Positions 8,640 to 53,019 of a DNA stretch of 64,000 bases are shown piece by piece; positions within the stretch are counted from its first letter, which is position 1; each line of letters begins with the position of its first letter. A program made the translations under genes and the position numbers. Under the pieces are notes generated by a model that saw only the letters and a program-made list of their open reading frames with translations, searched no databases and was not told where the DNA came from. The stretch lies in assembly GCF_044324785.1 (NCBI RefSeq), contig NZ_CP172127.1; one strand, 5' to 3'. The DNA is from Escherichia coli. Lineage in GTDB: Bacteria; Pseudomonadota; Gammaproteobacteria; Enterobacterales; Enterobacteriaceae.

Positions 8640-11600
8640 ATGAGTAAACTTTTGGATCGCTTTCGCTACTTCAAACAAAAGGGCGAAACCTTTGCCGATG
8701 GTCACGGACAGGTGATGCATAGCAACCGCGACTGGGAGGACAGCTATCGCCAGCGTTGGCAGTTCGACAAAATCGTGCGTTCCACCCACGGTGTTAACTG
8801 TACAGGCTCCTGTAGCTGGAAAATCTACGTTAAAAATGGTCTGGTGACCTGGGAAATCCAACAGACCGACTACCCGCGCACTCGCCCTGACCTGCCCAAT
8901 CATGAACCTCGCGGCTGCCCGCGTGGCGCAAGTTACTCCTGGTATCTCTACAGCGCTAACCGTCTGAAATACCCGCTCATTCGTAAACGACTGATTGAAC
9001 TGTGGCGCGAAGCCCTCAAGCAACACAGCGATCCGGTACTGGCGTGGGCATCGATTATGAACGATCCGCAAAAGTGCCTGAGCTACAAACAAGTACGTGG
9101 ACGCGGCGGCTTTATCCGCTCTAACTGGCAGGAGCTAAATCAGCTGATTGCTGCCGCTAACGTCTGGACCATCAAAACTTACGGCCCGGATCGCGTTGCC
9201 GGTTTCTCGCCGATCCCGGCGATGTCGATGGTTTCTTACGCCGCCGGAACACGTTATCTGTCGCTGTTAGGTGGCACCTGTTTAAGTTTCTATGACTGGT
9301 ATTGCGACCTGCCGCCTGCCTCGCCGATGACCTGGGGCGAGCAAACCGACGTGCCAGAATCTGCCGACTGGTATAACTCCAGCTACATCATCGCCTGGGG
9401 GTCTAACGTACCGCAGACACGTACGCCGGACGCCCACTTCTTTACCGAAGTACGCTACAAAGGCACTAAAACCATCGCCATTACCCCTGACTACTCTGAA
9501 GTGGCCAAATTGTGCGACCAGTGGCTGGCACCGAAACAAGGCACTGATAGCGCCCTGGCGATGGCAATGGGCCATGTGATTTTAAAAGAGTTTCATCTCG
9601 ATAATCCCAGCGACTATTTTATCAACTACTGCCGCCGCTACAGCGACATGCCGATGCTGGTAATGCTGGAACCTCGCGACGATGGTAGCTACGTTCCCGG
9701 GCGCATGATCCGCGCGTCTGACCTGGTAGATGGACTGGGCGAAAGCAACAATCCGCAGTGGAAAACCGTGGCAGTTAATACAGCAGGTGAACTGGTGGTG
9801 CCGAACGGTTCGATTGGTTTTCGCTGGGGAGAAAAAGGCAAATGGAATCTGGAATCCATTGCCGCCGGTACGGAAACCGAATTGTCGTTAACTCTGCTCG
9901 GTCAACATGATGCCGTTGCAGGCGTGGCCTTCCCCTACTTTGGCGGCATTGAAAATCCGCATTTTCGCAGCGTAAAACACAATCCGGTCCTGGTGCGCCA
10001 ATTGCCCGTTAAAAACCTGACATTAGCCGATGGTAACACCTGTCCGGTCGTCAGCGTTTATGATTTAGTACTGGCGAATTATGGCCTCGATCGCGGGCTG
10101 GAAGATGAAAACAGCGCGAAAGATTACGCTGAAATCAAACCGTACACCCCAGCCTGGGGTGAGCAAATTACCGGCGTGCCGCGCCAGTATATTGAAACCA
10201 TCGCCCGTGAATTTGCCGATACCGCCCATAAAACGCATGGGCGCTCGATGATTATCCTCGGTGCTGGCGTCAACCATTGGTATCACATGGACATGAACTA
10301 CCGTGGGATGATCAACATGCTGATCTTCTGCGGTTGTGTCGGGCAAAGCGGTGGCGGCTGGGCACACTATGTCGGTCAGGAAAAACTGCGCCCGCAAACC
10401 GGCTGGTTGCCGCTGGCCTTTGCGCTCGACTGGAACCGCCCACCGCGCCAGATGAACAGCACCTCGTTTTTCTACAATCATTCCAGCCAATGGCGCTATG
10501 AAAAAGTCTCTGCTCAGGAGTTACTTTCACCGCTCGCCGATGCCAGTAAGTACAGCGGTCATCTGATTGATTTCAACGTTCGCGCCGAACGTATGGGCTG
10601 GCTACCTTCTGCGCCGCAGCTGGGGCGTAACCCGCTCGGGATTAAAGCTGAAGCCGACAAGGCCGGATTATCCCCCACAGAATTTACCGCCCAGGCGCTG
10701 AAATCGGGCGATTTACGCATGGCCTGCGAACAACCAGATAGCGGCAGCAATCATCCGCGTAATTTGTTTGTCTGGCGTTCTAACCTGCTTGGCTCCTCCG
10801 GCAAAGGCCACGAGTATATGCAGAAGTATCTGCTGGGAACCGAAAGTGGGATTCAGGGTGAGGAACTCGGTGCCAGCGACGGGATCAAACCAGAAGAAGT
10901 CGAGTGGCAAACTGCGGCGATTGAAGGCAAGCTCGACCTGCTGGTGACGCTCGACTTCCGTATGTCCAGTACCTGCCTGTTCTCCGATATCGTTCTGCCC
11001 ACCGCCACCTGGTACGAAAAAGACGATATGAACACCTCGGATATGCATCCGTTTATTCATCCGCTTTCTGCGGCGGTCGATCCGGCGTGGGAATCACGCA
11101 GCGACTGGGAAATCTACAAAGGTATCGCCAAAGCATTTTCGCAAGTGTGCGTGGGCCATCTTGGCAAAGAAACCGACGTGGTATTACAACCACTGCTGCA
11201 TGACTCTCCGGCAGAACTCTCCCAGCCGTGTGAAGTGCTCGACTGGCGCAAAGGCGAATGCGATCTGATCCCGGGTAAAACCGCGCCCAATATTGTAGCG
11301 GTGGAACGCGACTACCCTGCTACCTATGAACGCTTTACCTCGCTCGGGCCATTGATGGACAAACTTGGCAACGGCGGTAAAGGGATTTCGTGGAATACCC
11401 AGGATGAAATCGATTTCCTCGGCAAACTCAACTACACCAAGCGTGAAGGCCCGGCACAGGGGCGTCCGCTGATTGACACCGCCATTGACGCATCAGAAGT
11501 GATTCTGGCGCTGGCACCGGAAACCAACGGTCATGTTGCAGTCAAAGCGTGGCAGGCGCTGGGCGAGATCACCGGACGCGAACATACCCATCTGGCGCTG

Positions 11601-12364
11601 CACAAAGAGGACGAAAAGATTCGCTGCAGCCACGTAAAATTATCTCCAGCCCCACATGGTCTGGTCTGGAAAGCGATCACGTCTCCTATAACGCGGGATA
11701 CACCAACGTTCATGAGTTAATTCCGTGGCGCACGCTGTCGGGACGCCAGCAGCTTTATCAGGATCATCCGTGGATGCGTGCCTTTGGTGAAAGCCTGGTG
11801 GCTTATCGCCCGCCTATCGACACCCGTAGCGTCAGTGAAATGCGCCAGATACCGCCAAACGGCTTCCCAGAAAAAGCACTTAACTTCCTGACGCCGCATC
11901 AGAAATGGGGCATTCACTCAACCTACAGTGAAAACCTGCTAATGCTGACGCTCTCTCGCGGTGGACCGATTGTCTGGATTAGCGAAACCGATGCCCGTGA
12001 ACTGACCATTGTCGATAACGACTGGGTGGAAGTGTTTAACGCCAACGGCGCGCTGACTGCCCGCGCGGTGGTCAGCCAACGTGTACCGCCGGGTATGACC
12101 ATGATGTATCACGCCCAGGAACGCATTATGAATATTCCTGGTTCGGAAGTAACTGGCATGCGCGGCGGCATTCATAACTCGGTCACCCGCGTTTGTCCGA
12201 AACCAACGCATATGATTGGCGGTTACGCGCAGCTGGCCTGGGGCTTTAACTACTACGGCACCGTCGGCTCGAACCGCGACGAATTCATCATGATCCGCAA
12301 GATGAAGAACGTTAACTGGCTGGATGATGAAGGTCGCGATCAGGTACAGGAGGCGAAAAAATGA
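8640..12364 (+). pseudogene. narZ: respiratory nitrate reductase Z alpha subunit, reading frame broken near 11625
   Basis: NarZ/NarG-like protein in frame 0 from MSKLLDRFRYFKQKGETFADGHG to ...HLALHKEDEKIR, then continues in a different frame (...QPRKIISSPTWSGLESDHVSYNAGYTNVHELIPWRT... to stop at 12364); span is 3725 nt, not a multiple of 3. Confidence 0.75.
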
Positions 12365-13905
12365 AAATACGTTCGCAAGTCGGCATGGTGCTTAATCTCG
12401 ATAAATGTATCGGCTGCCATACCTGTTCGGTGACCTGTAAAAACGTCTGGACCGGACGCGAAGGCATGGAGTACGCATGGTTTAACAACGTCGAAACCAA
12501 ACCGGGCATTGGTTATCCGAAAAACTGGGAAGATCAGGAAGAGTGGCAAGGCGGCTGGGTGCGTGATGTGAATGGCAAGATCCGCCCGCGTCTGGGCAGC
12601 AAGATGGGCGTAATAACCAAAATCTTCGCCAACCCGGTGGTGCCGCAGATTGATGATTACTACGAACCTTTCACCTTCGACTACGAACATTTGCATAGCG
12701 CACCGGAAGGCAAACATATCCCTACTGCTCGCCCGCGTTCACTGATTGACGGCAAACGGATGGACAAAGTGATCTGGGGGCCAAACTGGGAAGAATTGTT
12801 GGGCGGCGAATTCGAAAAACGCGCCCGTGACCGCAACTTCGAGGCCATGCAAAAGGAGATGTACGGGCAGTTTGAAAACACCTTCATGATGTACCTGCCG
12901 CGCTTGTGCGAACACTGCCTCAATCCCAGTTGCGTGGCGACCTGCCCAAGCGGCGCTATCTACAAACGCGAAGAAGACGGCATTGTGCTGATCGATCAGG
13001 ATAAATGCCGTGGCTGGCGTTTGTGCATTAGCGGTTGTCCGTACAAAAAAATCTACTTCAACTGGAAAAGCGGCAAGTCAGAAAAATGTATCTTCTGTTA
13101 CCCACGAATTGAGTCAGGCCAACCCACCGTGTGCTCAGAAACCTGCGTGGGTCGCATCCGGTATCTGGGCGTGCTGCTCTACGACGCCGACCGCATCGAA
13201 GAAGCAGCGAGTACCGAACGCGAGGTTGATCTCTATGAACGCCAGTGCGAAGTGTTCCTCGATCCGCACGATCCCTCGGTGATCGAAGAAGCCCTGAAAC
13301 AAGGTATTCCACAAAACGTGATTGACGCTGCCCAGCGTTCGCCTGTCTACAAAATGGCGATGGACTGGAAACTGGCACTACCGCTGCACCCTGAATACCG
13401 CACCCTGCCGATGGTCTGGTACGTTCCTCCGCTGTCACCGATTCAGTCCTACGCTGATGCGGGAGGTTTGCCGAAAAGCGAAGGCGTGCTGCCCGCCATC
13501 GAAAGCCTGCGTATTCCGGTGCAATATCTCGCCAATATGTTGAGTGCCGGTGATACCGGTCCGGTACTGCGGGCGCTGAAACGGATGATGGCGATGCGCC
13601 ACTATATGCGTTCACAAACCGTGGAAGGCGTTACTGATACTCGTGCCATCGACGAAGTAGGCCTGAGCGTCGCCCAGGTCGAAGAGATGTATCGTTACCT
13701 CGCCATTGCCAACTATGAAGATCGTTTTGTTATCCCGACCAGCCATCGGGAAATGGCGGGCGATGCCTTCGCAGAACGCAACGGCTGCGGTTTTACCTTT
13801 GGCGACGGTTGCCACGGTTCGGACAGTAAATTCAACCTGTTCAACAGTAGCCGTATCGATGCCATCAACATCACCGAAGTGCGCGACAAAGCGGAGGGCG
13901 AATAA
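12361..13905 (+). CDS. narY: nitrate reductase Z beta subunit (Fe-S), 514 aa
   Basis: MKIRSQVGMVLNLDKCIGCHTCSVTCKNVW...; ATGA overlap with narZ stop. Confidence 0.92.
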   Translation: MKIRSQVGMVLNLDKCIGCHTCSVTCKNVWTGREGMEYAWFNNVETKPGIGYPKNWEDQEEWQGGWVRDVNGKIRPRLGSKMGVITKIFANPVVPQIDDYYEPFTFDYEHLHSAPEGKHIPTARPRSLIDGKRMDKVIWGPNWEELLGGEFEKRARDRNFEAMQKEMYGQFENTFMMYLPRLCEHCLNPSCVATCPSGAIYKREEDGIVLIDQDKCRGWRLCISGCPYKKIYFNWKSGKSEKCIFCYPRIESGQPTVCSETCVGRIRYLGVLLYDADRIEEAASTEREVDLYERQCEVFLDPHDPSVIEEALKQGIPQNVIDAAQRSPVYKMAMDWKLALPLHPEYRTLPMVWYVPPLSPIQSYADAGGLPKSEGVLPAIESLRIPVQYLANMLSAGDTGPVLRALKRMMAMRHYMRSQTVEGVTDTRAIDEVGLSVAQVEEMYRYLAIANYEDRFVIPTSHREMAGDAFAERNGCGFTFGDGCHGSDSKFNLFNSSRIDAINITEVRDKAEGE

Positions 13906-14600
13906 TGCAGATCCTCAAAGTGATCGGCCTGTTGATGGACTATCCGGACGAGCTGTTATGGGAATGTAAGGAGGACGCGCTGGCGTTGATCCGCCGCGAC
14001 GCACCGATGCTTACGGATTTTACCCGCAACCTGCTTAACGCGCCGCTGCTGGATAAACAGGCCGAATGGTGCGAAGTGTTTGACCGTGGACGTACCACAT
14101 CGCTGCTGCTGTTCGAACATGTTCATGCCGAGTCCCGCGATCGCGGCCAGGCAATGGTGGACCTGCTGGCGGAGTATGAAAAGGTCGGTCTGCAGTTGGA
14201 TTGTCGAGAACTGCCCGATTATCTGCCGCTGTATCTGGAGTACTTAAGCGTACTGCCGGACGATCAGGCGAAAGAAGGCTTGCTCAACGTTGCGCCGATC
14301 CTCGCCCTGCTTGGCGGACGCTTAAAACAACGCGAGGCACCGTGGTACGCGTTATTTGACACCCTGTTGCAACTGGCAGGAAGTACACTTTCAAGTGACA
14401 GTGTCACAAAACAGGTGAACAGTGAGGAGCGCGATGACACCCGCCAGGCACTGGATGCGGTGTGGGAAGAGGAACAGGTGAAGTTTATTGAAGATAACGC
14501 CACGGCGTGTGACAGCTCGCCGCTTAATCAATATCAGCGACGCTTTAGCCAGGATGTCGCGCCGCAGTATGTCGACATCAGTGCGGGAGGTGGGAAATGA
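13905..14600 (+). CDS. narW: nitrate reductase Z assembly chaperone (NarJ paralog), 231 aa
   Basis: 231-aa ORF between narY and narV. Confidence 0.9.
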
Positions 14601-15277
14601 TTCAGTATCTGAACGTCTTTTTTTATGATATCTACCCGTACATTTGTGCGACGGTGTTTTTCCTCGGCAGCTGGCTGCGCTACGACTACGGGCAGTACAC
14701 CTGGCGCGCCTCCTCAAGTCAAATGCTCGATAAACGCGGGATGGTGATATGGTCGAATCTGTTCCATATTGGCATTTTGGGGATTTTCTTCGGGCACCTG
14801 TTCGGCATGTTAACGCCGCACTGGATGTACGCGTGGTTTTTGCCAGTGGCAGCGAAACAACTAATGGCGATGGTACTCGGCGGCATTTGTGGTGTGTTGA
14901 CGTTGATTGGCGGCGCAGGACTGCTGTGGCGCAGGCTGACTAATCAGCGCGTGCGTGCAACTTCCACTACGCCGGATATTATCATCATGAGCATTTTGCT
15001 GATCCAGTGTCTGCTGGGGCTAAGTACCATACCGTTTTCAGCACAGTATCCTGATGGTAGCGAAATGATGAAGCTGGTGGGTTGGGCGCAAAGCATTGTC
15101 ACTTTCCGTGGTGGATCGTCAGAAATGCTTAACGGCGTAGCGTTCGTTTTCCGCCTGCATCTGGTATTGGGAATGACCATCTTCCTGCTCTTCCCGTTCA
15201 CCCGACTGGTGCATGTGTGGAGCGCTCCGTTTGAGTACTTTACTCGTCGGTATCAGATTGTGCGTTCGCGGCGATAA
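14597..15277 (+). CDS. narV: nitrate reductase Z gamma subunit (cytochrome b), 226 aa
   Basis: 226-aa membrane ORF overlapping narW stop. Confidence 0.9.
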
Positions 15278-16317: not shown

Positions 16318-16841
16318 TGAACTGCACCCCAAATGTTGGACATAATCTGACATCTGAAGGTGCAGTTTATGAAACATTCATTTGAAGTAAAACTTGCCGC
16401 TGTAAATCATTACCTGGCTGGTCATGCAGGCATCATTTCTACGGCAAAACTCTTTCAACTTTCTCACACCAGCCTCTCACACTGGATTAATCTTTTTCTT
16501 CTTCACGGTCCTCGGGCACTGGATTGCAGACACAAGCGTAGCTATTCTCCTGAAGATAAACTTTGCGTGGTTCTTTATGCTCTCGGGCATTCTGAGTCTC
16601 TACCCCGGGTAGCTGCCCGGTTTAACATTCCCAGCCACAACACGGTTAAAAACTGGATAAAAGGCTACCGCAAATCTGGTAATGAGGCCTTTATCAGGCG
16701 CAGGAAGGAGAAAAGCATGACCCGTTCTGATGATACCCATGAAAACGAGGCAAACATGACGCCGGAAGAGATGAAGAATGAGCTGCGTTATCTTCGCGCA
16801 GAAAATGCATATCTGAAAGCCATGCAGGAGCATCTCCTGGA

Positions 16842-17749
<908 letters not shown>

Positions 17750-21696: not shown

Positions 21697-22071
21697 TTAC
21701 TCTAATGGTTTTATTAATTGTAAATTTTTAAATGTCATGCTTAATAAGCCATCAGAAAAATAAAGAAAAAATTTATATATCCTTTTGTTTTTTAATTTCT
21801 TTATATACCCATTACTTATATTACCTGACTTGTGATTATCGATTAACTCAGCAGAATCCATAGCGAACACTAAATCATCTACATCAGAAAATTCAACTAT
21901 CATTTTTTCCCTAATGTTCTCATTTTTATAAATGTCAATAAATAACGTCATGTTAAAATGAGATTCTTTGAATGTCGTTTTTACTTCTAACAAAACCCCA
22001 TCATGCCAGTCAATTGAACTCACAATGTCAAAATCGCTCATTATATAATCTCCATTATCCGTTTTAATCAT
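21697..22071 (-). CDS. ydcD: Rhs-associated immunity protein (YdcD-like), about 124 aa
   Basis: [31 protein letters not shown]...; ATG (22071..22069) overlaps the Rhs stop TGA (22070..22068) as ATGA; no signal peptide; AT-rich. Confidence 0.7.
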
Positions 22072-25000
22072 GGAGTAACAACGTTTGCAGGTATTGACCA
22101 CCAAAGAGGTGGTGCAAGTGAAGGTATAAATCGAATCACTCTATATATAACATACCCTGCGCCAATTGTAGCACCAGTTGCAAGAGCCGCATCAGTAGTT
22201 GATAGCCCGGAGGTTTTGCATGACAGATCTTTACTTGGTTCTGGCTCGAAACCATATTTTTTTGCACATTTCTTAATGCTATTTGGTGCTGATGAGTAAT
22301 CCTCACCATGGGACATACCTCCAAATTCCCCCATTACACCACTCCCATTTTTACACTCCCAATGCAAATGTCTTCCGTCACCAACAGCATCGCCATCTAT
22401 TCGGATTCGACAACCTTTACCACAGTCCTTCCATTTTCCTGAAGTATGAGCTAATCCCAATGGATCAATCCATTGCACAGGATTGTTCATAACATAACTG
22501 TACGGGTTTATTCCCCCCGCCAGCCCTATCGGATCCTGGATGATATACCGCCCCTGCAACGGATCGTAGTACCGGTGACGGTTATAATACAGCCCCGACT
22601 CCTCATCGTGTTGCTGCCCAGGCAGACGGTAGGGCTGGTGCAGGTGATGCGGGTTTTCCTCATTCAGCAGGTTTCCCCACTCATCATACTCCCCGCTCCA
22701 CGCCGTATTGCCGTCTTCGCTGATGAGCGCCAGCGGCAGGCCCCGGTGGTCGCAGTGGTAAAGATGAACTTTTCGCGCCGGTGTGTATTCCGGCTCCACC
22801 TGTCTGGCCAGTTGCTCTACCGTCAGCCCGCACTGCGCAAGCCACGCCCGGCTTTCACTGCTCACGCGGTCTGCCCGGATTTCCCCCTCCAGCCTGTCCA
22901 GCATCCTCACAAGTTCTGCCGGGAACACCACACCGTGTCCGTTCTCGCTCCCTTCCTGCTGCAACTTCTCCGCCAGGCTCCGCCGCTGCGTTTTCTCCCG
23001 CTCGCCGTTGTCTGTTTCGATGCGGATGAGTGGTGTGAAGCTTCCCGGCTCGTATACCGTCTGGATACGTGTGCTGTCGGTCTGCACCGTCGTCAGGTGG
23101 TCGCCGTCCCAGCCGTACCACGTCACCTCCGGTTTACGCGACAGCGACATCCACCCCGTCAGGTCACGTACCCGCCGCCACACCCGTTTACCCGTCCGGC
23201 GGCCCAGCGGGTCGTAGAGGTAGCGGCTCTCCACCTGCGGCTCGCCATGCTGTATCCGCGTGTAGAACACCAGGCGGTGCTGGCTGTCGTAGTGGTAGTG
23301 GTGGGTCCGCTCGTCGTCCGTCCGTATCACACCCGCCGGGATGCGGTCCGTCTTCTCCGTCAGCCTGCCGTATTCATCGTGGCGGTAGACATAGTGCGCA
23401 TCCTCCGCGATGCGGTTATCCGGCCACACTGTGAGTGTACTGTCCGGGTGCAGCTCCGGGTCCGGCAGCCGGTTGCCCGCCGGGTCCGTGGCATACGGGA
23501 TGCGGATGTCCAGGTCCGGTGCGAGGGTGCGCACACTCTCCAGCCTGCCCGTGGCGCTGTAGCCGTATTCCCGCGTCTGTCGCGGGCCGCTGATGCGCAC
23601 CAGGTCGCCGTTGTCATTCCACCCGTAGTCACGGTCATACACCAGGCTGTTCAGGTGCTGGCTCTGTAACTGGCCTGCGGGGGTGTATGTGCTGGTCAGT
23701 TCGTATGCGGCATTACTGCCTGCCATGCTGCCGAAGCTGCGCACCGTCTCCCGGTGCAGCCTGTCCCGCGTATACTCGACCCGCGGCGTCCCGCCCAGCT
23801 TCATTCCCGCCAGGTAACCGCTGCCATACGTCAGCCACTCCACCGGCGGCAGGCTGTCCGGCGTGACGCGGTTTGCCAGCCCCTGCTCGTTGTATGCGTG
23901 TTTCGTCTCATGCTGCCACAGCAGTTCCCCCGTCTCCGGGTTCTCCACCGTCTGGCGTTCGCCGGTCAGGCGGCCTTTATCGTCATAGCCGTAGTGGACC
24001 GCCACACGGTGGCCTTCACTGATATGGCTGAGGGTGGTTAACCACCCGTGCTCATCATACTGCCACTGCTCTGCCGGGTCGCCGTTCACCGTCCGGTGCG
24101 TGATGCGGTCTGCTTCATCGTAGTACCACTGCGTGACCTGCCCCTCATCCTAGCTGCGGATGAGCTGCCCTGTGGCGCTGTACCGGTAACGCTGTGTCCT
24201 GCCATCAAAGCCGCGCTGCTCCGTCAGGCGGTCCAGCACATCGTAGGTAAATTCACTCCGGCTGCCGTTCTCGTTGGTCAGCACGGTGATGCGCCCGGCA
24301 GCGTCATACCCCATGCTGCGCGTCAGCCCGCCTTCCGTCACACTCACCGGACGCCCGCGTTTATCATATGCGATGGTGCTGCGTTTACCGTCCGGTGATA
24401 TCGTTGCTGTCAGGTCGCCTGCGGCACTGTACTCATAACGGGTTTCACGCCCCTGCGCATCCTTCTGCCCTGTCAGCCTGCCGCGGCTGTCATAGAGACT
24501 ATAAATACTGAGACCTTCCTCCCGGTGAACGGCGATTTGTTGACCGTACCGGTCATACTCATACCGCGTCATGTACCCCGAGCAGTCCGTGAAGGCCCGA
24601 AGCTGACCGTACCGGTTTCGCGTTATTCTCCGCGTTACCCCGATTCCGTCTTCCACCGCGCCGGGCAGGCTACTGCGGGGGGAGTCATAAAACCAGCGTG
24701 TAATGTTACCGTTGCGCGAGGTCTCTTCTGCCAGTCGGCCCTGACGGTCATATTTCCGGCTGCTGCGTAAACCATCCGGATATGTCACTGAAGTCAGTTG
24801 CAACTGGCTGTTATAGCCATACCACACCGTCCTGCCGTCCGGCAGTATCACTGAAGTCAGCTTTCCAGACGCCATATGCAGCCGGTTCACCGTCCGCCGC
24901 CCCGCCGCATCCGTCTGCGCCTTCAGCCTCCCCGCCTCATCATACTCGCTGCGGGTGATGCTCCCGTCCGCATGCTCCTTCTTCACCACCCGCTTCAGAC

Positions 25001-26242
25001 CACCTTCGCCTTCCGTGTACAGCACCTCCCGCCGGTTCAGGCTGTCCGTGATGGTCACACGGTCCTGCCCGTACTCAAAGCGGTAGTCCAGTCCCTCCTG
25101 GTTGACCTGCTCCGTCACCCGCCCGGTATCATCATACCGGTAGCGGCTCTCCGGCCTCCCTGCATAATGGCGCGCCACCATCCGCCCGGCGTGCTCCGCA
25201 TCATAAGTAAACCCGCGCACCTGCGTCCCGCTGCGGTCATACACCGCCCGCAGTTCTCCGCTGGCCGTGTACGTGTAGCGCGCCAGCGGCGCAGTCGGCT
25301 GTTCATCCGGGTATGCCGGGTCGTGTGTCAGCCACACCGCCTCCAGACGGATACCGTTATCCGTGCCGTATTCTGTACCGGCGGGCAGCGTGTCGGGGAA
25401 AGCTGAAGAAGAGGAAGCAGAACGGGGACCTGCAGGGGAAGATAAAGACGTGGCGCGCTGTTTACGGAGGGCTTCCGCCCGCTGCGCCTGTGTGGTCAGC
25501 GCCAGATGAAAACGGCGGCCCGCGCCGTCCGTCACCCCCGTCACCGCGCCCGCCGCTTCCCCCTCTGCCGCCCGGTGGAAGGCCAGCGTCCGCCCGAAGC
25601 CGTCCACCACGCCCGTCAGCACCCGGTATGCGGGCGGCTCCGGCGGCAGCACCTCGTCCGCCTCCGGCACCCGCTCCGGCCAGCCGAGTATCAGCCACTG
25701 CCCGGTTGTGCTGGCAGCCATCATATAGATGTGTGGACTCAGACGGACCGCTTCCGGCAACGCCCGCCAGAGCCGCGCAAGCGGGTGGCCTTTGTGCTGT
25801 TTCAGCACCCCGCCCCGCGCCAGCCAGAACGACTCACTGCGGCTGTAACTTATCTCGCCGGGAAACAGGGGTTCAAAGTGAATACTTCTGCCGCCACTGT
25901 CGTTGAGTATCAGGCCTTCATCGCGTATCTGTAAGCGGATATCGAAGGGGGCTTTCCAGCCGGGACCAAACACCCCACCGGCGCGGGTGTCCTGGTCCGG
26001 TAGCTGCTGTAAGCGCGAGAAAGAATAAACGGCAGCGGGCCGGGCAGCGCAAGGTCCGTCTCGCCCGGCAGCACCTTCGCACCCAGTAGCGGGTTCAGCG
26101 GGTTAGCATAGGTAATCCCTCCCGGACACACCGAGCAGGCCACTCCCGTCGGCGCACCTATCAGCCCCCCTGCTGAACCCTGCACAATATCCAGTCCCTT
26201 GCGGGTCATGTCACCCTGCCGCGCCGCCGGTTTTCCGCTCAT
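22068..26242 (-). pseudogene. rhsE: Rhs family protein, full-length copy inactivated by a 1-nt deletion (about 25968) and an in-frame TAG (24150..24152); C-terminal tail differs from the upstream Rhs
   Basis: Three collinear minus ORFs (25910..26242, 24150..25973, 22068..24089) together align along the intact Rhs at 26781..31043; core ends ...[28 protein letters not shown] then a 127-aa unique tail. Confidence 0.8.
22480..24089. repeat. Rhs core segment nearly identical to 27286..28895 (direct repeat, constant offset 4806 bp)
   Basis: Identical encoded protein over about 380 aa ([28 protein letters not shown]...KLQQEGSE) and identical antisense ORFs at 22473..23669 and 27903..28475. Confidence 0.85.
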
Positions 26243-26780: not shown

Positions 26781-29700
26781 CTATTCTGGCGTGCCATTTA
26801 TTGTTGCCGTCTGTGTTGGTGTATTCACACGATAATACACTCCATTATATGCTGTTCTGGTACACTCACCTAAAGTTTTCGCCGCATGCTGTTCAATTAA
26901 AGTGATAACTCTCGCCTCTTCTTTATTTTTATATTGTTCATCCGCACGTCTCACAAGCCCCATATAGCCATCCTTATCAATAAGATATAAGTGCGCATGA
27001 GCAAACTCATGCCCCAAACCTAATGCAGGTGATTGTGATTTCGATTTTAAATCAGTTGAACAAAATAAAGCCGCCTTACCATTCCAATATATAGTCATTT
27101 TATCCGGGTCAAATCTAACGTCGGTTTCATCAATATACTCTATCTTTATGGTTTCTTCAGAGCTTGATAAAAAATCTATAGCTTCTTTCATTCGTGAATC
27201 TTGTTTTAAATACTCAACAGCCTGATTAAAATCACTTGGATCATCGTTAACATGGAATTTTAAACCCAAAGAATCTATAAACCGAACAGGGTTTAATGGA
27301 TATTTATACAGATTCCATTCACCTCTTAGCCCGATTGGATCCTGGGTGATATACCTCCCCTGTAGCGGGTCATAGTACCGGTTCCGGTTATAGTACAGTC
27401 CTGATTCCTCATCATGCTGCTGCCCCGGCAGACGGTATGGCTGGTGCAGGTGATGCGGGTTCTCCTCATTCAGCAGGTTGCCCCATTCATCATATTCCCC
27501 ACGCCATTCCGTTGCTCCTTCGGTACTGATGAGCGCCAGCGGCAGCCCCCGGTGGTCACAGTGATAAAGATGAATTTTTCGCTCAGGTAAATAAACCGGC
27601 TCTATCTGTGCCGCCAGCCGCTCCACCGTCAGCCCGCACTGTGCCAGCCACGCCCGGCTTTCACTGCTCACGCGGTCTGCCCGGATTTCCCCCTCCAGCC
27701 TGTCCAGCATCCTCACAAGTTCTGCCGGGAACACCACACCGTAGCCGTCCTCGCTTCCTTCCTGCTGCAACTTCTCCGCCAGGCTCCGCCGCTGCGTTTT
27801 CTCCCGCTCGCCGTTGTCTGTTTCGATGCGGATGAGTGGTGTGAAGCTTCCCGGCTCGTATACCGTCTGGATACGTGTGCTGTCGGTCTGCACCGTCGTC
27901 AGGTGGTCGCCGTCCCAGCCGTACCACGTCACCTCCGGTTTACGCGACAGCGACATCCACCCCGTCAGGTCACGTACCCGCCGCCACACCCGTTTACCCG
28001 TCCGGCGGCCCAGCGGGTCGTAGAGGTAGCGGCTCTCCACCTGCGGCTCGCCATGCTGTATCCGCGTGTAGAACACCAGGCGGTGCTGGCTGTCGTAGTG
28101 GTAGTGGTGGGTCCGCTCGTCGTCCGTCCGTATCACACCCGCCGGGATGCGGTCCGTCTTCTCCGTCAGCCTGCCGTATTCATCGTGGCGGTAGACATAG
28201 TGCGCATCCTCCGCGATGCGGTTATCCGGCCACACTGTGAGTGTACTGTCCGGGTGCAGCTCCGGGTCCGGCAGCCGGTTGCCCGCCGGGTCCGTGGCAT
28301 ACGGGATGCGGATGTCCAGGTCCGGTGCGAGGGTGCGCACACTCTCCAGCCTGCCCGTGGCGCTGTAGCCGTATTCCCGCGTCTGTCGCGGGCCGCTGAT
28401 GCGCACCAGGTCGCCGTTGTCATTCCACCCGTAGTCACGGTCATACACCAGGCTGTTCAGGTGCTGGCTCTGTAACTGGCCTGCGGGGGTGTATGTGCTG
28501 GTCAGTTCGTATGCGGCATTACTGCCTGCCATGCTGCCGAAGCTGCGCACCGTCTCCCGGTGCAGCCTGTCCCGCGTATACTCGACCCGCGGCGTCCCGC
28601 CCAGCTTCATGCCCGCCAGGTAACCGCTGCCATACGTCAGCCACTCCACCGGCGGCAGGCTGTCCGGCGTGACGCGGTTTGCCAGCCCCTGCTCGTTGTA
28701 TGCGTGTTTCGTCTCATGCTGCCACAGCAGTTCCCCCGTCTCCGGGTTCTCCACCGTCTGGCGTTCGCCGGTCAGGCGGCCTTTATCGTCATAGCCGTAG
28801 TGGACCGCCACACGGTGGCCTTCACTGATATGGCTGAGGGTGGTTAACCACCCGTGCTCATCATACTGCCACTGCTCTGCCGGGTCGCCGTTCACCGTCC
28901 GGTGCGTGATGCGGTCTGCTTCATCGTAGTACCAGAGGATGACAAGCCCCTCATCTTCACTCTGCGTGAGTTTTCCGGTCAGGTCATAATGATAACGTTG
29001 CGTCCGCCCGTCAAAGCCGCGCTGCTGTACCAGGCGGTCCAGCGCATCGTAGCTGAAGTCGCTGTGACTGCCGTTCTCGTTGGTCAGGCTGATGACACGT
29101 CCGGCAGCATCGTACTCCATACTGCGCGTCAGCCCGCCCTGCGTGGTGCTGACCGCCTTTCCCCACGCATCGTACTGTGTCTCGCTCCGGTTGCCGTCCG
29201 GGGTGATAACGGCAGTCAGGTCGCCTGCGGCGTTGTACTCATACTGCGTTTCACGGCCCTGTGCGTCTTTCACCGAGGTTAACCGGCCACGGTTGTCATA
29301 GCGGCGGTAACGGCTGATACCTTCCTCACGGTGGACCGCCGTCATCTGACCAAAGCGGTCGTATTCATAACGGGTCTGGTAGCCCGAGCAGTCGGTGAAC
29401 GCCAGCAACTGCCCGTAGCGGCTCCAGGTCATCTGCCGGGTGCTGCCCGTCGCATCCGTTGTCGTCGCCGGTAATTCACTGTGCGGATTATCATAAGCAT
29501 ACCGGATGACGTCCCCACTGCGCGATGTCTCCGTTACCAGCCTGCCCGGTTCATCATATGCCCGGCGGCTCTCCAGCCCGTCCGGGGACACCACTGCCGT
29601 CACCTGGTTCCCGTCGTTATAGTAAAATTTCGTCTCCCGCCCGTCCGGTGTGGTGATGTCCGTGATATCGCCTGACACCACATTCAGACCGTACTCTGTC

Positions 29701-31043
29701 CGCCGTCCCGCCGCGTCCGTCTGCGCCGTAAGCCGCCCCACCGGGTCATACCCGCTGCGCGTGACGCTGCCGTCCGCCAGTTCTTTTTTCACCACCCGTT
29801 TCAGCCCGCCTTCACCTTCTGTATGCAGCACCTCACGCCGGTTCAGGCTGTCCGTGACGGTGATGCGGTCCTGCTCATACTGGTAGCGGTAACTCAGGCC
29901 TGCCGGGTTCAGCTGCTCCACCACCCGCCCCGCATCGTCGTAGCGGTAGCGCATCTCCGGCCTTCCCGCGTAACGGTGCGCCACCATCCGGCCCGGGTGC
30001 TGCGCGTCATACGTGAAAGCGCGCACCTGCGTATTGCTGCGGTCATATACCGCCAGCAGTTCACCGGCTTCCGTATACGTGTACCGCGCCAGTGGCGCAC
30101 CGGGCAGATTCTCCGGGTATGCCGGGTCGTACATCAGCCACACCGCTGAAAGACGGATACCCCTGTCGGGGCCGTATTCCGTACCGGGCAGTGTGTCGGG
30201 GAAAGCTGAGTCTGAAAGAGGGCGGGGGGTGTCAGGGGAAAATAAGGAAGCGGTGTGCTGTTTACGGGCCTCTTCCGCCCGCTGCGCCTGCGTGGTCAGC
30301 ACCAGACGGAACTCCCGCCCGGCACCGTCCGTCACGCCGGTGATTTCCCCGGCCAGGTCACCGGCGGCCTCACGCCGGTACGCCAGCGTCCGCCCGAAGC
30401 GGTCTGCCAGCCCGGTAAGCACCCGGTACGGCGGCAGCGGCGCTGGCAGTACGTCCTCAGCACCCGGCACCCGCTCTGACCACCCCAGTATCCACCACGG
30501 CCCCTGTGCGCTGTTGGTCGCCAGGTAAAGATGCGGGCTTAACCGGATATCCGGCGGCAGCGCCCCCCACAGCCGTGCCAGCGTGTGGCCGTCCGGCTGC
30601 GCTGCCTTACCACCGCGCACCAGCCACATTGACTCGCTGCGGCTGTACACCGCCTCACCCGGCAGCAGCGGCTCAAAGTGAATGCTCCGCCCGCCGTTGT
30701 CGTTGAGTATCAGTCCGTCATCACGTAGCTGTAAGCGGATATCAGAAGGCGCTTTCCAGCCGGGGCCGAAAACGCCCACCGGCGCAGGCGTCTTCGTCCG
30801 GTAGCTGCTGTAGGTGCGGGAGAGAATGAACGGCAGCGGGCCGGGCAGCGCAAGGTCCGTCTCGCCGGGCAGCACCTTCGCCCCCAGCAGCGGATTTACC
30901 GGGTTGCCCGAAGTCATCCCGCCCGGACACACCGAGCACGCCACGCCGGTGGGCGCGCCAATTCTTACACCTGCCGAACCCTGGACAATGGGACCGCCAT
31001 ACTGAGTCATATCTCCCTGACGCGCCGCTGGTTTTCCGCTCAT
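26781..31043 (-). CDS. Rhs family protein with conserved PAAR-like N-terminus, YD-repeat core and C-terminal tail containing an HExxH motif, 1420 aa
   Basis: [42 protein letters not shown]...; YD repeats; core ends ...[27 protein letters not shown]; tail 26781..27260 contains [10 protein letters not shown] (codons at 26997..27011). Confidence 0.9.
27286..28895. repeat. Rhs core segment nearly identical to 22480..24089
   Basis: see paired repeat. Confidence 0.85.
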
Positions 31044-31109: not shown

Positions 31110-33218
31110 TCAGTACTCTCTCATATCCGGCGTATCCTGCTTTTCATCAGGGGTCTTCGGTGGGGATTTCGAGGCTGCACAGTTCCAGTTAATCAACAGT
31201 GAGTCACCATTAACCTGCTCCTTACCCTGCAAATGAATTTTTGTGCCGTTGAGAAAAATTTGTCCGTCCTTAGTCAGCACCAGCCTTGCCTTACCACAGC
31301 AGAGTTCCAGATGCTCACCGGCGGAGTAAATCGCGGTCTGCCCGGTATCATCCTTTTTCGTTTTACCAACGGTGAAGGTAACGTTATTTCCGACTTTGAC
31401 GTCATAACCCAGCCCGACCCTCAACGATTTATGCAAACCGATCTGCGAGGACTGCATCAGGGCCACCGAGGTGTTCATAATGCCACCTACCGTCGTCTGA
31501 TACGCCACGCCCACAGTCAGCGCACGCACAAGTCCAATCGTTTCCACCTGAACAGAGCCCACTTTAATGATCTGGTTACTGCCCACCGTCTCTATCTGGT
31601 TAACACCCACCGTCTGTATCTGATTGTTGGTAACCGCAATCATCTGATTGTTGCCAATGGTCTCAGCATGGTTGTTTATCACATCCGTGGTGCGGTTATT
31701 CAGCACCTCGGTGTTCATATTCTTCTGCGCGTGGATGTAGACCTGTTCTTTCCCTGTCGCATCGTCAAACTTCAGTTCATTAAACCCGCTGCCCTTATAG
31801 GTTTTCGAACGAATGGTCATCTGCGTCTTTGTTCCCGGCAGGCTGCCGGGGGTGCGGTTTTCCTGGTGGTAGGTACGCCCCATAATAATCGGCTGGTCCG
31901 GATCGCCGTTGAGGAAGTCCACAATGACTTCCTGACCCACACGCGGTATCGCCAGGTTGCCAAAGCTGGTGCCTGCCCACGCCTGTGCCACACGGATCCA
32001 GCATGAACTGTCCTGGTTTGACGGGTTATAGCGGTCCCAGTTAAATTTCACCCGCACGCGGCCATGTTCATCACAGAAGATTTCCTCGCCTGCCGGTCCT
32101 GTCACGACGGCGCTCTGCGGGCCATCCACCAGCGGTTTCAGCAACGGCTGTGGTCGCCATGTTCTGTCTGCCGGTATTACCGCAAAGTGGTTATTCAGTG
32201 TGGTACCCGAACCACTGCGTCCCGGCACCGCCTGCGGCTGCTCGCCGTGCAGATCGCTCGCCACCACCTGCCATTCACGGTTCAGGTTCGCCTGCGGATG
32301 CCCCGTCAGCGCAATTCGCCGTCCCGGCCATATCTCCGGCGAACGGCTTGTTCCGCGCGCCACTTCTGCGTTGTTTCGCCAGCCATCCATCTGCCAGCGG
32401 GCAAAGTTCTGCCCGTGGGCACCCTTGAAACGTCCGGGGTAGTCATACACTTCATACTGTGTGCGCTGGTAATCCTGGTGCTGGCCTTCCTGATCAAAAC
32501 GCCCTGCCCAGCCGGGTCGTTTAAAGGTGTAGTCTTTGGTCACCACGGAAGATGGGCGGATTTGTGCGCTGTAGCGGAACTGGCTGATGCAGAGGGTGCT
32601 CACCTCGGTACGGGTGTTCGGATTCCAGGGGATCTCAAAGGACTCCGGCAGATAACGCACGGTGTCGCACAGGACCAGGCTCTGGTCGGTACTTTTTTGC
32701 GCGTGCTCCTCATAAAAGAAGATGCCTTCCTCCGCCGCCATCCGGCACAGGAAATCGTAATCGGTCTCACCGTACTGGACACAAAATTCACGGGAAGGAT
32801 GCGGCTCGCTGAACAGCGGACTCCACTCGGTCACCCCGTTTTCTTTCAGGATCGTCACGAGGATGCTTTCGATGTCCTCATTCTGGAAGATACGGAAGTT
32901 CTGGCGCAGCCCTGTGCGCCACAGCGGTGGGCACACCTTCATGCTGTACAGCATCTGGTTTTTGTCGTTCTCCCCCAGTTCAAACCAGGTCACCACACCT
33001 TTCACCCGGCGCTGTACGTCATCGCCCTGCCATACCGTCAGGTAGGCCATTTTGTCCAGCACCTGCGCAAATTCAAGGGAAAGAAACTGCTGACTGACCA
33101 GAGAAAGGTCGAGGGAAAAAAGTGAAGAGAGTGACTGGTTCAGATGAAAGGAGACCACCGCAAACGCGTCCGGTGGCAGGCCGTCCACTTCCAGCGTGAA
33201 ACGTAATCCGGTTGACAT
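31110..33218 (-). CDS. vgrG: VgrG (type VI secretion spike protein), about 702 aa
   Basis: MSTGLRFTLEVDGLPPDAFAVVSFHLNQSLSSLFSLDLSLVS... with GGAGG RBS; ends 67 bp before the Rhs start; track ORF extends to 33323 but the RBS supports 33218. Confidence 0.88.
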   Translation of the reverse strand: MSTGLRFTLEVDGLPPDAFAVVSFHLNQSLSSLFSLDLSLVSQQFLSLEFAQVLDKMAYLTVWQGDDVQRRVKGVVTWFELGENDKNQMLYSMKVCPPLWRTGLRQNFRIFQNEDIESILVTILKENGVTEWSPLFSEPHPSREFCVQYGETDYDFLCRMAAEEGIFFYEEHAQKSTDQSLVLCDTVRYLPESFEIPWNPNTRTEVSTLCISQFRYSAQIRPSSVVTKDYTFKRPGWAGRFDQEGQHQDYQRTQYEVYDYPGRFKGAHGQNFARWQMDGWRNNAEVARGTSRSPEIWPGRRIALTGHPQANLNREWQVVASDLHGEQPQAVPGRSGSGTTLNNHFAVIPADRTWRPQPLLKPLVDGPQSAVVTGPAGEEIFCDEHGRVRVKFNWDRYNPSNQDSSCWIRVAQAWAGTSFGNLAIPRVGQEVIVDFLNGDPDQPIIMGRTYHQENRTPGSLPGTKTQMTIRSKTYKGSGFNELKFDDATGKEQVYIHAQKNMNTEVLNNRTTDVINNHAETIGNNQMIAVTNNQIQTVGVNQIETVGSNQIIKVGSVQVETIGLVRALTVGVAYQTTVGGIMNTSVALMQSSQIGLHKSLRVGLGYDVKVGNNVTFTVGKTKKDDTGQTAIYSAGEHLELCCGKARLVLTKDGQIFLNGTKIHLQGKEQVNGDSLLINWNCAASKSPPKTPDEKQDTPDMREY

Positions 33219-34036
33219 AGCAACCTCCGTGAAAATGAATAATAATCCGCACATATTGCATGTACAACATGTCGGGCGGATGAGATAAGCGAGTCGACAT
33301 CTGGCGTTACCGGGGAATATCAAAAAATGTCATGGTTATGTGATGATTTAGTCTGGGATTTTACTTCAGAGAAACGGGTGTCTGTTTAGTCAACAAAATA
33401 ATCACAAACGCAACGGATGGGTTCTCGACGTTATTCACGACAGGCTCGTACATTACAGCGAGTAATAAAAACCTGATATGCAAAGTCAAACCAATATTCA
33501 TAATGTCTTTTTATTCACAACAATAAATAATTCAATAACAATCATTGAAATGAATGATGGTTTGTATAAGGAATATACGCTGCCGCCCCACCCTGATAAC
33601 ATGATCTGCACATTGCCATCTTAACGTCGTTAAACACTGGCTTAATAGTGGATATTTAAAATTAGGAATTTATTAAATTCACCTGATGAATATCATAAGC
33701 AAATAGCATAGAAAATAATGACAACTCCCCCGAGGGGACCATTTCCAAAGCACTGCACCACCACCTGGTGCCCGGATGATCTTGCTTCAGTGGTAAGAGT
33801 ACCTGATTCATTGTTCCCAAAATGGTGTTTTCCCCTGCCCCTCCAATAATGTGCAGCTCTCACGTGATAATCTATTGATTAGGTTATATTAAGAATCAAT
33901 ATTTGAAATACATCCATTTTCTTGAATAAATCAACATGTTTATTTATCAATTGCTGTTTTAGCTCTGACTCATCAAGCTCTCCATATTTGTCCTACAGAT
34001 AATCGCGAATAAATACAGAGAACGCCATTTATCCTT

Positions 34037-43995: not shown

Positions 43996-44091
43996 ATGAA
44001 TGTTTCCAGTAGAACTGTAGTACTGATAAATGTCTTTGCTGCTGTTGGTTTGTTTACTCTTATCTCTATGAGATTTGGCTGGTTTATTTGA
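43996..44091 (+). CDS. yncL: small protein YncL, 31 aa, single transmembrane helix
   Basis: MNVSSRTVVLINVFAAVGLFTLISMRFGWFI; not in ORF track (<60 aa), read directly from DNA. Confidence 0.7.
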   Translation: MNVSSRTVVLINVFAAVGLFTLISMRFGWFI

Positions 44092-44114
44092 TGTAGTGAT
44101 TTTGCACGCAGCAC

Positions 44115-44147
44115 GTACTGTCAGAGAAATCAACTCTCTGACAGTAC
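44115..44147. repeat. perfect 12-bp inverted repeat GTACTGTCAGAG / CTCTGACAGTAC with 9-nt loop, downstream of yncL
   Basis: seen directly; no flanking T-run on either strand. Confidence 0.5.
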
Positions 44148-44492
44148 ACAAGATCTTCTCATACTCTCCAGGTTTACAACATTATCCTTAATATTTACTT
44201 CTTTTTGCTGGCATCTACATTGAAATGAGTAGAAAACATCCCCCTACTGTCGTCTATACAAACAGCTTACTGATTCAAAGGGAATCTTGTTTTCACATTT
44301 TTCTATCATCAATACTTTAGACGCGCGGGAGTCTATAAATGCTTTATACTTTCAAGGAATAACGTAAATATAAAAAGATGGCGTAAAGTATATGCATGGC
44401 AGGATGATTGCAACCTCCTTGATGACGCTGTCCCATTGAAATTGCAAACCCCGCACTGGTTATCTTACTCATTTATCATGTAAAACAGACAA

Positions 44493-45302
44493 TTATAGGT
44501 CTCTGAATATCTCAGAAAGATTGAATTTTTTATAGTCCCTCTCTTGAATATTTCCATTTGATATCAATCGATTCATCTCTTCAACAAAATAATTTATATC
44601 ATCACATTTGTTATTATCCGGAAGATCTGAGTAATTATAATTCCACCACTTTATTCTCAACAATTCATCAATAATATTTGAATCAAATCTAAATCTGATT
44701 ATTTTTGCAGGAACTCCTGCAACTATGGCATATGGGGGCACATCTTTGGTAACAACGGAATTGGCAGCAATAACAGCACCATCACCTATTGCGATACCAC
44801 CTTTCAATACAACATCATTTCCTATCCAGACATCATTTCCTATAATCGGATTTTCAGGTTTGGTAATGAATGGTTTCAATGCCCAGCTACGTTCAAACTC
44901 ACTCATAGCAAACTTATCAAATTCACCGTTATAAGTCATCATGTGAGTAGTAAAACGATTCAAAGGATGATTTCCACCCATTATTTTTACATTTGATGCA
45001 ATACTACAAAATCGACCTATATGTATATTCCCTGTAAAATGACAGGTCGGAAATGAAAAAGCGCCGACACTGGAGAAATTTTTTACAGGCATTGTTGAAT
45101 ATTCTTCAGCAATAACATTATCTTCAATTGTTATCTTGTCACCTTTTGAGAAAAGAAATAAATTCCTTTCTTTATACGACTTCTTCCCCTTATGATTTAA
45201 AAAGATTTTATTATCCATACAAAACTCAAAGTGTTTTTTCGTCCACCTGAAGGTAAGGGTTTTATTTTTATCTTCCGTGAATTTATACAATTGAACTTTC
45301 AT
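44493..45302 (-). CDS. hexapeptide-repeat xenobiotic acetyltransferase, Vat/CatB-like, 269 aa (start uncertain)
   Basis: HIGRFCSI...GGNH...IIGNDVWIGNDVVLKGGIAIGDGAVIAANSVVTKDVPPYAIVAGVPAKIIRFRFDSNIIDELLRIKWWNYNYSDL closely parallels streptogramin A acetyltransferase motifs; strongly AT-rich. Confidence 0.75.
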   Translation of the reverse strand: MKVQLYKFTEDKNKTLTFRWTKKHFEFCMDNKIFLNHKGKKSYKERNLFLFSKGDKITIEDNVIAEEYSTMPVKNFSSVGAFSFPTCHFTGNIHIGRFCSIASNVKIMGGNHPLNRFTTHMMTYNGEFDKFAMSEFERSWALKPFITKPENPIIGNDVWIGNDVVLKGGIAIGDGAVIAANSVVTKDVPPYAIVAGVPAKIIRFRFDSNIIDELLRIKWWNYNYSDLPDNNKCDDINYFVEEMNRLISNGNIQERDYKKFNLSEIFRDL

Positions 45303-45524
45303 TGTTAATACTTCTACTTATAAATTATTAGGTTAATAACGATACTCTAAAGCCTTATGCGAATCAACTATGACAGGATGAAAAATCACCAACATACATT
45401 TAGATCATAATAACTGCCTAATTTTTCCGCTAGTTATTAATGTAATCATTCTGATACTTAATCACCATTACACTCAGAACCTAAAACGATAGTGGCCGCC
45501 CTATAACAGCCACTAACATTTAAC

Positions 45525-46949
45525 TTAATGTTTAACCATGACGTGGCGGACGACGGTGTAATCCTCCAGCCCATAAAGTGACATATCCTTGCCGTAACCA
45601 GAAAGTTTCTGCCCACCGTGCGGCATTTCACTTACCAGCATGAAATGGGTATTGACCCAGGTACAACCATATTGCAGCCGCGCGCTGACGCGATGCGCCC
45701 TGCCCACATCTTTCGTCCATACCGAGGATGCAAGTCCGTACTGGCTGTCATTTGCCCAGTTCACCACCTGTTCTTCGTTGTCGAAATGCGTAACACTCAC
45801 TACCGGACCAAATACCTCTTTTTGCACGATGGCATCGTCCTGTAATGCGCCAGCCAGTAGCGTCGGCGCATAGTAATAGCCATTACCCTTGCGCTTTTCA
45901 CCGCCAGTGATCACTTTGATGTGCCCTGTCGCTTTCGCCTCTTCTACCGCTTTGCTGACGCGTTCGAGATGCGCCAGCGAGCTTAAAGGTCCAAGCTCCG
46001 TAGACTCGTCATCCGGTGCACCAGATTTTAACGTTGCCACTGCAGCACCGAGTTTTTCCACCAGCGTATCGTAAATACCTTTTTGCGCGTAGATCCGACA
46101 AGCCGCAGTACAATCCTGTCCGGCATTGTAATAGCCAAAAGTACGTACACCTTCGGCCACCGCTTCAATATCCGCATCATCAAAAACTATCACTGGCGCT
46201 TTGCCTCCAAGTTCCATATGAGTACGCTTTATGGACGGCGCGGTATGGCTGATGATGTGCTCGCCAGTGGCGATAGAGCCCGTCAGTGACACCATCCGCA
46301 CTTTGGGATGTCCGGTCAGCGGATCGCCCACCGTTTTGCCTCTGCCAAACAGTACGTTAATCACGCCTGCCGGGAAGATATCTTTCGCCAGCTCTGCCAA
46401 CTTCAACGCTGTCAGCGGGGTAATTTCTGATGGTTTGAGCACTACGCAGTTCCCTGCCGCCAGCGCCGGAGCCAGTTTCCACGCAGCCATCATCAGCGGA
46501 TAATTCCACGGTGCGATAGAAGCCACGACCCCCAACGGATCGCGACGGATCATCGAAGTATGACCTTCAAGATATTCACCTGCCGCCAGACCATGCAGGC
46601 AGCGAGCTGCTCCGGCGAAAAAGCGAAAGACATCGACAATCGCCGGAATTTCATCATTGAACGCACTATGCAGCGGTTTACCACAGTTACGGGACTCCAG
46701 TTCGGCAAAAACCTGACCATTTTCTTCGATAACATCAGCCAGTTTCAGCAGGCATTCCGCACGCGCTTTCGGCGTGGTTTGCCCCCATTCGGCAAATGCT
46801 GCATCTGCCGCGCGCACAGCAGCATCCACCTGTTCTGCGGATGCCTCGGAAATCTCCAGTAAAACGTCCCCCGTTGCCGGATTATAGACAGGCTGTTTTT
46901 CCCCTTCGCCGCTAACCAGTTCTCCGTTTATCAGTAACTTATGTTGCAT
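45525..46949 (-). CDS. patD: gamma-aminobutyraldehyde dehydrogenase, 474 aa
   Basis: [33 protein letters not shown]... aldehyde dehydrogenase family. Confidence 0.9.
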
Positions 46950-46970
46950 AGCATATTCCTGTATCAGTGG

Positions 46971-47765
46971 TTATTGACCATTGTCGCCTTCGCGGGTTAG
47001 CCACCAGGCTCCCAGGATCGGCAAGGTTGTTACCAACATAACCAGCAGTGCCACCACGTTGGTTACCGGTACATCACGCGGTCGCCCAAGCTGATTGAGC
47101 AACCACAACGGTAACGTTCGTTCATGACCTGCCGTAAAGGTCGTCACGATGATTTCATCGAACGACAAGGCAAACGCCAGCATTCCTCCTGCCAGTAGCG
47201 CCGAACTGAGATTCGGCAACACTACGTAGCGGAAGGTTTGCCAGCCATTGGCCCCAAGATCCATTGACGCCTCAACCAGACTCCAGGAGGTGCGGCGAAA
47301 ACGGGCGATGACATTGTTAAACACCACCACTACGCAAAAAGTCGCATGACCGACCACGATGGTGAAAAATCCCGGCTCCAGATCGATGGTTTTAAAGGCG
47401 GTTAATAGCGCCAGACCAGTGACAATGCCCGGCAGCGCAATGGGCAGCAGCAGTAACAGCGAAATGGCGTTTTTGCCGAAAAAGTCTCGTCGCCACAGCG
47501 CGGCAGCGGCCAGCGTCCCTAACACCAGCGCAATTAATGTCGCCAGCGCCGCCACTTTAAGTGACAGTGTCACGGCATCAAGAATATCACTACGCTGTGC
47601 TGCCACGCTAAACCAGCGCAGCGTCAGGCCTTGCGGTGGAAAACTAAACGCCGCATCTTCAGTGTTAAACGCATAGGCGGCGATAATCAGGATGGGAAAA
47701 TGTAGGAAAACTACGCCGCCCCAGGCCGCCAGTTTGAGGAAAAACGGTGCGCGTTCAGAGTGCAT
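46971..47765 (-). CDS. ydcV: ABC transporter permease, 264 aa
   Basis: 264-aa permease ORF in ydcSTUV order. Confidence 0.88.
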
Positions 47766-49710: not shown

Positions 49711-49727
49711 AAAACACCCCAGCGAAG

Positions 49728-52524: not shown

Positions 52525-52602
52525 TATCGAATCGTAATTATGTGCAGATGATTCGGCAGTCTATATCAGTTGTTAAAAATGACAACTTTTCATTAACTGT
52601 TA

Positions 52603-53019
<417 letters not shown>

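Follow-up and report, generated by a model that had tools for sequence, protein, structure and literature searches.

A very recent 16-bp deletion in narZ of one Escherichia coli clone and the probable loss of nitrate reductase Z

The narZ gene of the Escherichia coli contig NZ_CP172127.1 was analysed within a stretch of 64,000 nt (the window) and found to be interrupted by a 16-bp deletion in codons 996–1001. This is very probably a spontaneous and very recent event in one E. coli clone that turned the gene into a pseudogene and cost the strain its nitrate reductase Z. Nitrate reductase Z is a secondary, stress-phase, RpoS-dependent isoenzyme with a minor share of nitrate respiration, and NarZ is its molybdenum-containing catalytic alpha subunit. 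In the sequence of events proposed here, a spontaneous deletion would have arisen in these codons of a single clone, shifting the frame after R995 so that translation would stop 31 codons further on. The resulting product, devoid of domain IV, could neither hold Mo-bisMGD nor assemble with its partners into an active NarZYV complex, so that the strain would be without nitrate reductase Z activity, with narYWV left intact, uncoupled and perhaps under-expressed by polarity.

Direct translation from position 8640 gave native NarZ sequence as far as ...HLALHKEDEKIR (R995, codon 11622–11624), after which come 31 residues without homology (CSHVKLSPAPHGLVWKAITSPITRDTPTFMS) and a TAA codon. In the list of open reading frames, one frame ends at 11720 and a second is open over 11549–12364; the latter encodes QPRKIISSPTWSGLESDHVSYNAGYTNVHELIPWRTLSGRQQ... 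and ends at the regular narZ stop codon (12364), and tblastn placed NarZ residues 995–1246 at 11606–12361, in a frame different from that of the 5' part. Alignment with the intact narZ of strain Z1323HEC0462 left a single gap of exactly 16 nt, TTCGCGATATTCAGGC, which takes away the final 2 nt of codon F996, the whole of R997–Q1000 and 2 nt at the start of A1001. This gap can be placed in only one way, since neither end of the lost 16 nt matches the flank on the other side by even one base. Each of the two open frames shows 98% identity to its part of a single 1246-aa protein, the two parts being consecutive, and because two such long frames meet at a single 16-nt gap, the pattern is not due to chance. 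An earlier note on this DNA had described the NarZ frame as running from 8640 to 11624 with homology continuing in another frame, the original frame as stopping at 11718, the gene span (8640–12364, 3725 nt) as 16 nt short of 3741 nt, and the cause as a 16-bp deletion at 11625/11626. The translations, the position of the stop, the length of the reference genes (3741 nt) and the single gap in the alignment bear this description out. The coordinates of the locus are given in Table 1.

Table 1. Features of the narZ locus and its neighbours, with positions numbered from the first nucleotide of the window.
Feature	Position	Strand	Description
narU, nitrate/nitrite transporter	7157..8545	+	Intact, 462 aa; 99.4% identity, full length
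narZ, 5' part	8640..11720	+	995 native codons (M1–R995), 31 out-of-frame codons and premature TAA; predicted product 1026 aa
PstI site CTGCAG	11624..11629		Created by the junction; inside the 8-nt palindrome GCTGCAGC at 11623–11630
Deletion junction	11625..11626	+	16 nt (TTCGCGATATTCAGGC) missing; from alignments to intact narZ
narZ, 3' part	11627..12364	+	Codons Q1002–K1246 and stop, in the -1 frame with respect to the 5' part and not connected to it by translation
Premature stop TAA, original narZ frame	11718..11720	+	Lies 640 nt upstream of the start codon of narY
196-aa ORF	11774..12364	+	NarZ residues 1051–1246, Molydop_binding domain; reported by gene callers as a separate gene
narY (PGAP: narH), beta subunit	12361..13905	+	Intact, 514 aa; start overlaps the narZ stop (ATGA), as in references
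narW, assembly chaperone	13905..14600	+	Intact, 231 aa
narV (PGAP: narI), gamma subunit	14597..15277	+	Intact, 226 aa, 100% identical to reference

When the 16 nt were put back in silico, a narZ ORF of 1246 codons was obtained with no further stop. This restored gene differs from the intact allele of Z1323HEC0462 by 67 nt but by only 4 of 1246 amino acids, a ratio typical of purifying selection, under which narZ thus stood up to the deletion, and the gene was functional until shortly before it. The locus thus has the same organisation as that of intact narZ (1246 aa; a paralogue of NarG, PDB 1Q16/1R27), from which it differs in lacking 16 nt in codons 996–1001, so that the broken frame separates the C-terminal 251 residues from the remainder. 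At the DNA level, more than 5,390 complete E. coli genomes contain an annotated narZ with 97–98% identity to the gene studied here.

The junction itself was found in 0 of 5,426 complete E. coli genomes, all of which align across the site with a 16-nt gap or with other lesions, and a scan of metagenome contigs also returned 0 matches. The best identity to complete genomes was 97.8–98.7% across three thirds of the window, and the lineage is sparsely represented among these genomes. Relatives were found through the exact NarW and YddE alleles of the window, and every examined relative carrying either allele has a narZ of 1246 codons. The closest are the draft genome GCA_053151395.1, with 0 mismatches over 13,794 bp and one gap, the 16 nt, and GCA_028598205.1, with 0 mismatches over 12.7 kb and six small gaps (22 nt in total, including the 16), of which the others are probable sequencing indels. 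narZ is intact in both, and both read ...GAAAAGATTCGCT-TTCGCGATATTCAGGC-GCAGCC... at the site. The prospect raised in the earlier note, that close relatives might show the same sequence in frame, was therefore not borne out: in near-identical relatives the 16 nt are present and narZ runs intact through 1246 codons. Since these relatives are intact, the deletion is very recent and confined to one clone. A lesion present here, intact genes in the closest relatives and an identical junction in an independent assembly (see below) together are as expected of a recent (unitary) pseudogene.

The way in which the deletion arose is less typical. No microhomology (zero nucleotides) was found at the deletion ends, which is atypical of simple replication slippage and counts against the step of origin in the explanation preferred here; slippage between direct repeats was rejected on this ground, and a hairpin-mediated origin is poorly supported, as only weak DNA structures (-5.7 kcal/mol) are predicted. 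The junction does make a 7-nt direct repeat, CGCTGCA, at 11596–11602 and 11622–11628, with the first copy 26 nt upstream. As a speculation, a double template switch could yield exactly this junction: CGCT would misprime on the upstream copy, GCA would be copied from it, and the strand would return to the GCA of GCGCAGCC. The PstI site that the earlier note read in the junction, CGC-TG-CAG, is present, with the break between T and G, and is the sole feature that hints at human design. PstI sites occur in the window at the frequency expected by chance (14 found versus 15.0 expected), and in the ancestral sequence none flanks the missing segment. PstI-based engineering was for these reasons rejected as the main reading, and the site is probably a coincidental by-product of the junction and no sign of engineering with a restriction enzyme.

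One alternative is that the allele has a laboratory origin, by construction or by selection: it could be a frameshift knock-out designed to carry a diagnostic PstI site, or a Cas9-escape deletion from the mutation of narZ in a wild strain that was sequenced afterwards. Several observations are compatible with it, such as the creation of CTGCAG by a junction without microhomology, the presence of an SpCas9 protospacer (GATTCGCTTTCGCGATATTC, PAM AGG) whose cut site and PAM both lie within the deleted segment, and the existence of a genome in which narZ is intact and 13.8 kb show 0 SNPs; moreover, narZ mutants are commonly made for gut-colonisation studies, for example in MG1655. However, the PstI frequency is that of chance, and 12 PAMs occur within 116 nt, which makes a PAM inside the deleted segment uninformative. 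In addition, no scar, cassette or foreign sequence was found, usual knock-outs take most of a gene instead of 16 nt near its 3' end, and natural narZ lesions are frequent. A literature search gave no paper naming ERR13187251, JBNPQX, GCA_053151395, GCA_028598205 or JAQRHF, and a preprint on MG1655 deletion mutants was discarded as the source of the allele, its mutants being unrelated. A laboratory origin is thus regarded as very unlikely, and a spontaneous deletion as the better account of the junction.

The deletion is present in the DNA and is no artefact of assembly, the second concern raised in the earlier note. An independent read-based assembly (Logan) of run ERR13187251 contains 9,081 bp that are 100% identical to positions 5640–14720 of the window, junction included, within a contig of 15.3 kb that was seen in three samples, although these may all stem from one isolate or be a laboratory derivative. 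This assembly also has on record exactly the truncated product of 1026 aa. That the true genome carries an intact narZ, misread in sequencing or assembly, could be argued from the rarity of the allele, which is missing from the complete genomes and metagenome contigs searched, but the junction was reproduced from raw reads within a stretch of perfect identity, and the loss of 16 nt from non-repetitive, non-homopolymer sequence is atypical of platform errors. An artefact is accordingly held to be extremely improbable.

The consequences for the protein are predicted from its domain architecture. The 1026-aa fragment scores 1863.9 bits on NCBIfam TIGR01580 (the narG equivalog; cut-off 1084), aligns with profile positions 1–1004 of 1235 and retains the Pfam domains Nitr_red_alph_N, Molybdopterin and NarG_dom_V. 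All of H50, C54, C58 and C93, which we take from NarG structural work to be the FS0 [4Fe-4S] ligands (H-x3-C-x3-C...C), are in the 5' translation, together with D223, the Asp of the YCD motif, assigned in the same way as the Mo-coordinating residue. The 196-aa C-terminal ORF covers positions 1052–1235 of the same profile. The Molydop_binding domain (domain IV) is encoded solely in this other frame, and the locus therefore does not provide a NarG/NarZ alpha subunit in one continuous frame. The truncated NarZ is without its last 251 residues, among them this C-terminal molybdopterin-dinucleotide-binding domain. In Mo-bisMGD enzymes, domain IV is part of the cofactor pocket; because it helps to form this pocket, a NarZ lacking it would be expected to be inactive. 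The truncated protein should thus be inactive and is probably also unstable. The region lost corresponds to TIGR01580 positions from about 1005 to 1235 and aligns residue for residue with NarG 985–1245 (PDB 1R27/1Q16), and the residues struck by the deletion, FRDIQA, are the same in NarG. On this evidence the locus is best read as a narZ-derived pseudogene and not as a functional member of TIGR01580.

An active enzyme could in principle still be made through a -1 ribosomal frameshift in the overlap of 11626–11717 or through assembly of the 1026-aa and 196-aa fragments in trans. Both frames are indeed open across 11549–11720, gene callers predict the Molydop_binding ORF from 11774 as a separate gene, and a precedent for assembly from fragments exists in formylmethanofuran dehydrogenase, in which domain IV is a separate subunit. 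Frameshift rescue is nevertheless unlikely because no slippery heptamer of the form X XXY YYZ occurs in 11549–11720, and even after such a shift at least five strictly conserved residues (FRDIQ) would be absent. Complementation by fragments is likewise unlikely, as residues 996–1050 are missing from both pieces. Furthermore, NarZ and NarG hardly differ in this region, a sign of its structural importance, and near-isogenic relatives carry an ordinary, uninterrupted narZ. With no heptamer in the overlap and an unsplit gene in relatives, a programmed -1 frameshift gene was rejected, and any form of rescue is given next to no chance. The loss of nitrate reductase Z remains the expected outcome.

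The surrounding genes are intact in sequence. Gapless full-length alignments to reference proteins were obtained for narU, narY, narW and narV (97.8–100% identity) and also for yddE (297 aa), which widens the range to 96.6–100%; the statement in the earlier note that narYWV are intact downstream thus stands. The order narU-narZ-narY-narW-narV-yddE, with nhoA beyond, is that of the narUZYWV (NRZ) cluster and not of narGHJI. Both narG and nap lie outside the window. Neither an intrinsic terminator nor a sigma-70-like promoter was predicted between the premature stop and narY and, because no such terminator was found, any polarity on narYWV would be Rho-dependent. The three genes would be without translational coupling to narZ, and they may be under-expressed through polarity.

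Other lesions of narZ are common in E. coli. The most frequent of those found is an amber mutation at Q1043 (CAG to TAG), detected by direct translation and as an exact 59-mer in 205 complete-genome records, which accounts for a common '1042-aa' class of proteins; RefSeq labels this allele 'internal stop' (e.g., strain M217) and other narZ alleles 'frameshifted'. Within 50 nt of the 16-bp site, PEC422 carries an independent deletion of 11 bp between GCG repeats, and a 5-bp (ATGGT) deletion occurs in one draft and five complete genomes, EcPF5 among them. The 5-bp deletion sits in a TGGTC-TGGTC tandem (window positions 11657–11666), in which one ENA assembly (L010) carries the reciprocal 5-bp insertion; these two changes are typical slippage. 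Counting the 16-bp deletion, the final fifth of narZ has at least five independent lesions, with narYWV intact each time. A public collection indexes the orphan 196-aa C-terminal ORF in 4,226 blocks, and the fragment is called in thousands of other assemblies with narZ broken by different lesions. The clustering of lesions is partly an effect of the search, which was centred on the junction and the C-terminal fragment, and no mutational hotspot is claimed beyond the TGGTC slippage site. In the literature library searched, no relevant paper on narZ pseudogenes, frameshifts or inactivation in E. coli was found.

The narZ pseudogenes annotated in RefSeq resemble the 16-bp allele in that they are hit in the last fifth of the gene, leave the orphan 196-aa ORF and retain narYWV. 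They differ from it as independent lesions, the 16-bp deletion having ends without a repeat and being confined to one clone. The allele is therefore new, though lesions of its kind are common and have been annotated before, and the pseudogene is an ordinary, strain-specific one. Repeated loss of this kind might be convergent and adaptive, favoured in certain niches and not neutral decay, perhaps keeping NarY and NarV for hybrid complexes with NarG, although we consider this unlikely.

In practical terms, the locus should be annotated as a narZ pseudogene (frameshifted), and its two ORFs should not be treated as separate proteins. The new PstI site offers a simple PCR-RFLP marker for the clone. 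The strain itself should be assumed to be without nitrate reductase Z. Beyond annotation, the significance of the allele is small, and the repeated inactivation of narZ in many E. coli lineages would be of interest only if selection for its loss proved true.

The 16-bp deletion that shifts the narZ reading frame recreates at its junction a second copy of the 7-nt repeat CGCTGCA, 26 nt downstream of the first, and the junction also forms the palindrome GCTGCAGC. The recreated repeat and the palindrome could mean that template switching, and not a simple loss, gave rise to the deletion. In other strains, a tandem TGGTC-TGGTC within narZ is a recurrent slippage site, at which a 5-bp deletion was found in the complete genome EcPF5, as well as in MS15046, 401656, OZ546984, E5, and the E. 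coli sequence L007, and a 5-bp insertion in the ENA assembly L010; each of these indels has broken narZ independently. By far the commonest narZ-inactivating allele among those seen here is the Q1043 amber (CAG to TAG), which 205 complete E. coli records carry, with the annotation "internal stop", and which was seen in four of the compared sequences (L006, L008, L009, and L012).

Features and sites in the window
Feature	Position	Strand	Details
Leucine-rich-repeat protein ORFs (two, adjacent)	4251-6835		421 and 425 aa; between ompC-like porin gene and narU
CGCTGCA, first copy	11596-11602		narZ
CGCTGCA, second copy	11622-11628		narZ, at deletion junction
TGGTC-TGGTC tandem	11657-11666		narZ
Codon 1043 equivalent	11750-11752		narZ
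IS1397 (IS3 family)	16319-17749		1,431 bp; ends TGAACTG...
RHS core gene	22068-25973	-	
RHS core gene	26781-31043	-	
vgrG	31110-33323	-	two RHS core genes downstream

Compared with 5,426 complete E. coli genomes, positions 1-44000 of the window reached best identities of 97.8-98.7%. In the same comparison, the core genes of positions 44001-64000, such as rlhA, opgD, patD, and ydcR, showed identities of at most 98.0%, and the lineage of the strain is therefore without a close complete RefSeq genome. The near-identical drafts, GCA_053151395.1 and GCA_028598205.1, have contigs of 5.5-5.7 Mb.

The pair of leucine-rich-repeat genes differs from strain to strain, since its counterparts in UID2309220033, the best-matching complete genome, are annotated as partial or frameshifted. 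Downstream of vgrG, the distal RHS core gene is divided into two ORFs of 673 and 607 aa, with the frame changing near the N-terminus; strain N3 shows the same split, and the gene's annotation there reads "frameshifted; internal stop". The proximal RHS core gene, though frameshifted in strain N3, is an intact 1420-aa ORF in the window.

Between yddE and nhoA, the IS1397 copy is flanked by a 3-bp target duplication (GTT) and splits a REP-like palindrome centrally, with GCCGGATAAGGCGTT on one side and TACGCCGCATCCGGC on the other. Among the relatives compared, this site is empty in L014, L017, and L021 and filled in L016 and L020. Palindromic units are the reported preferred targets of IS1397, and its placement inside a REP-like palindrome fits this preference.
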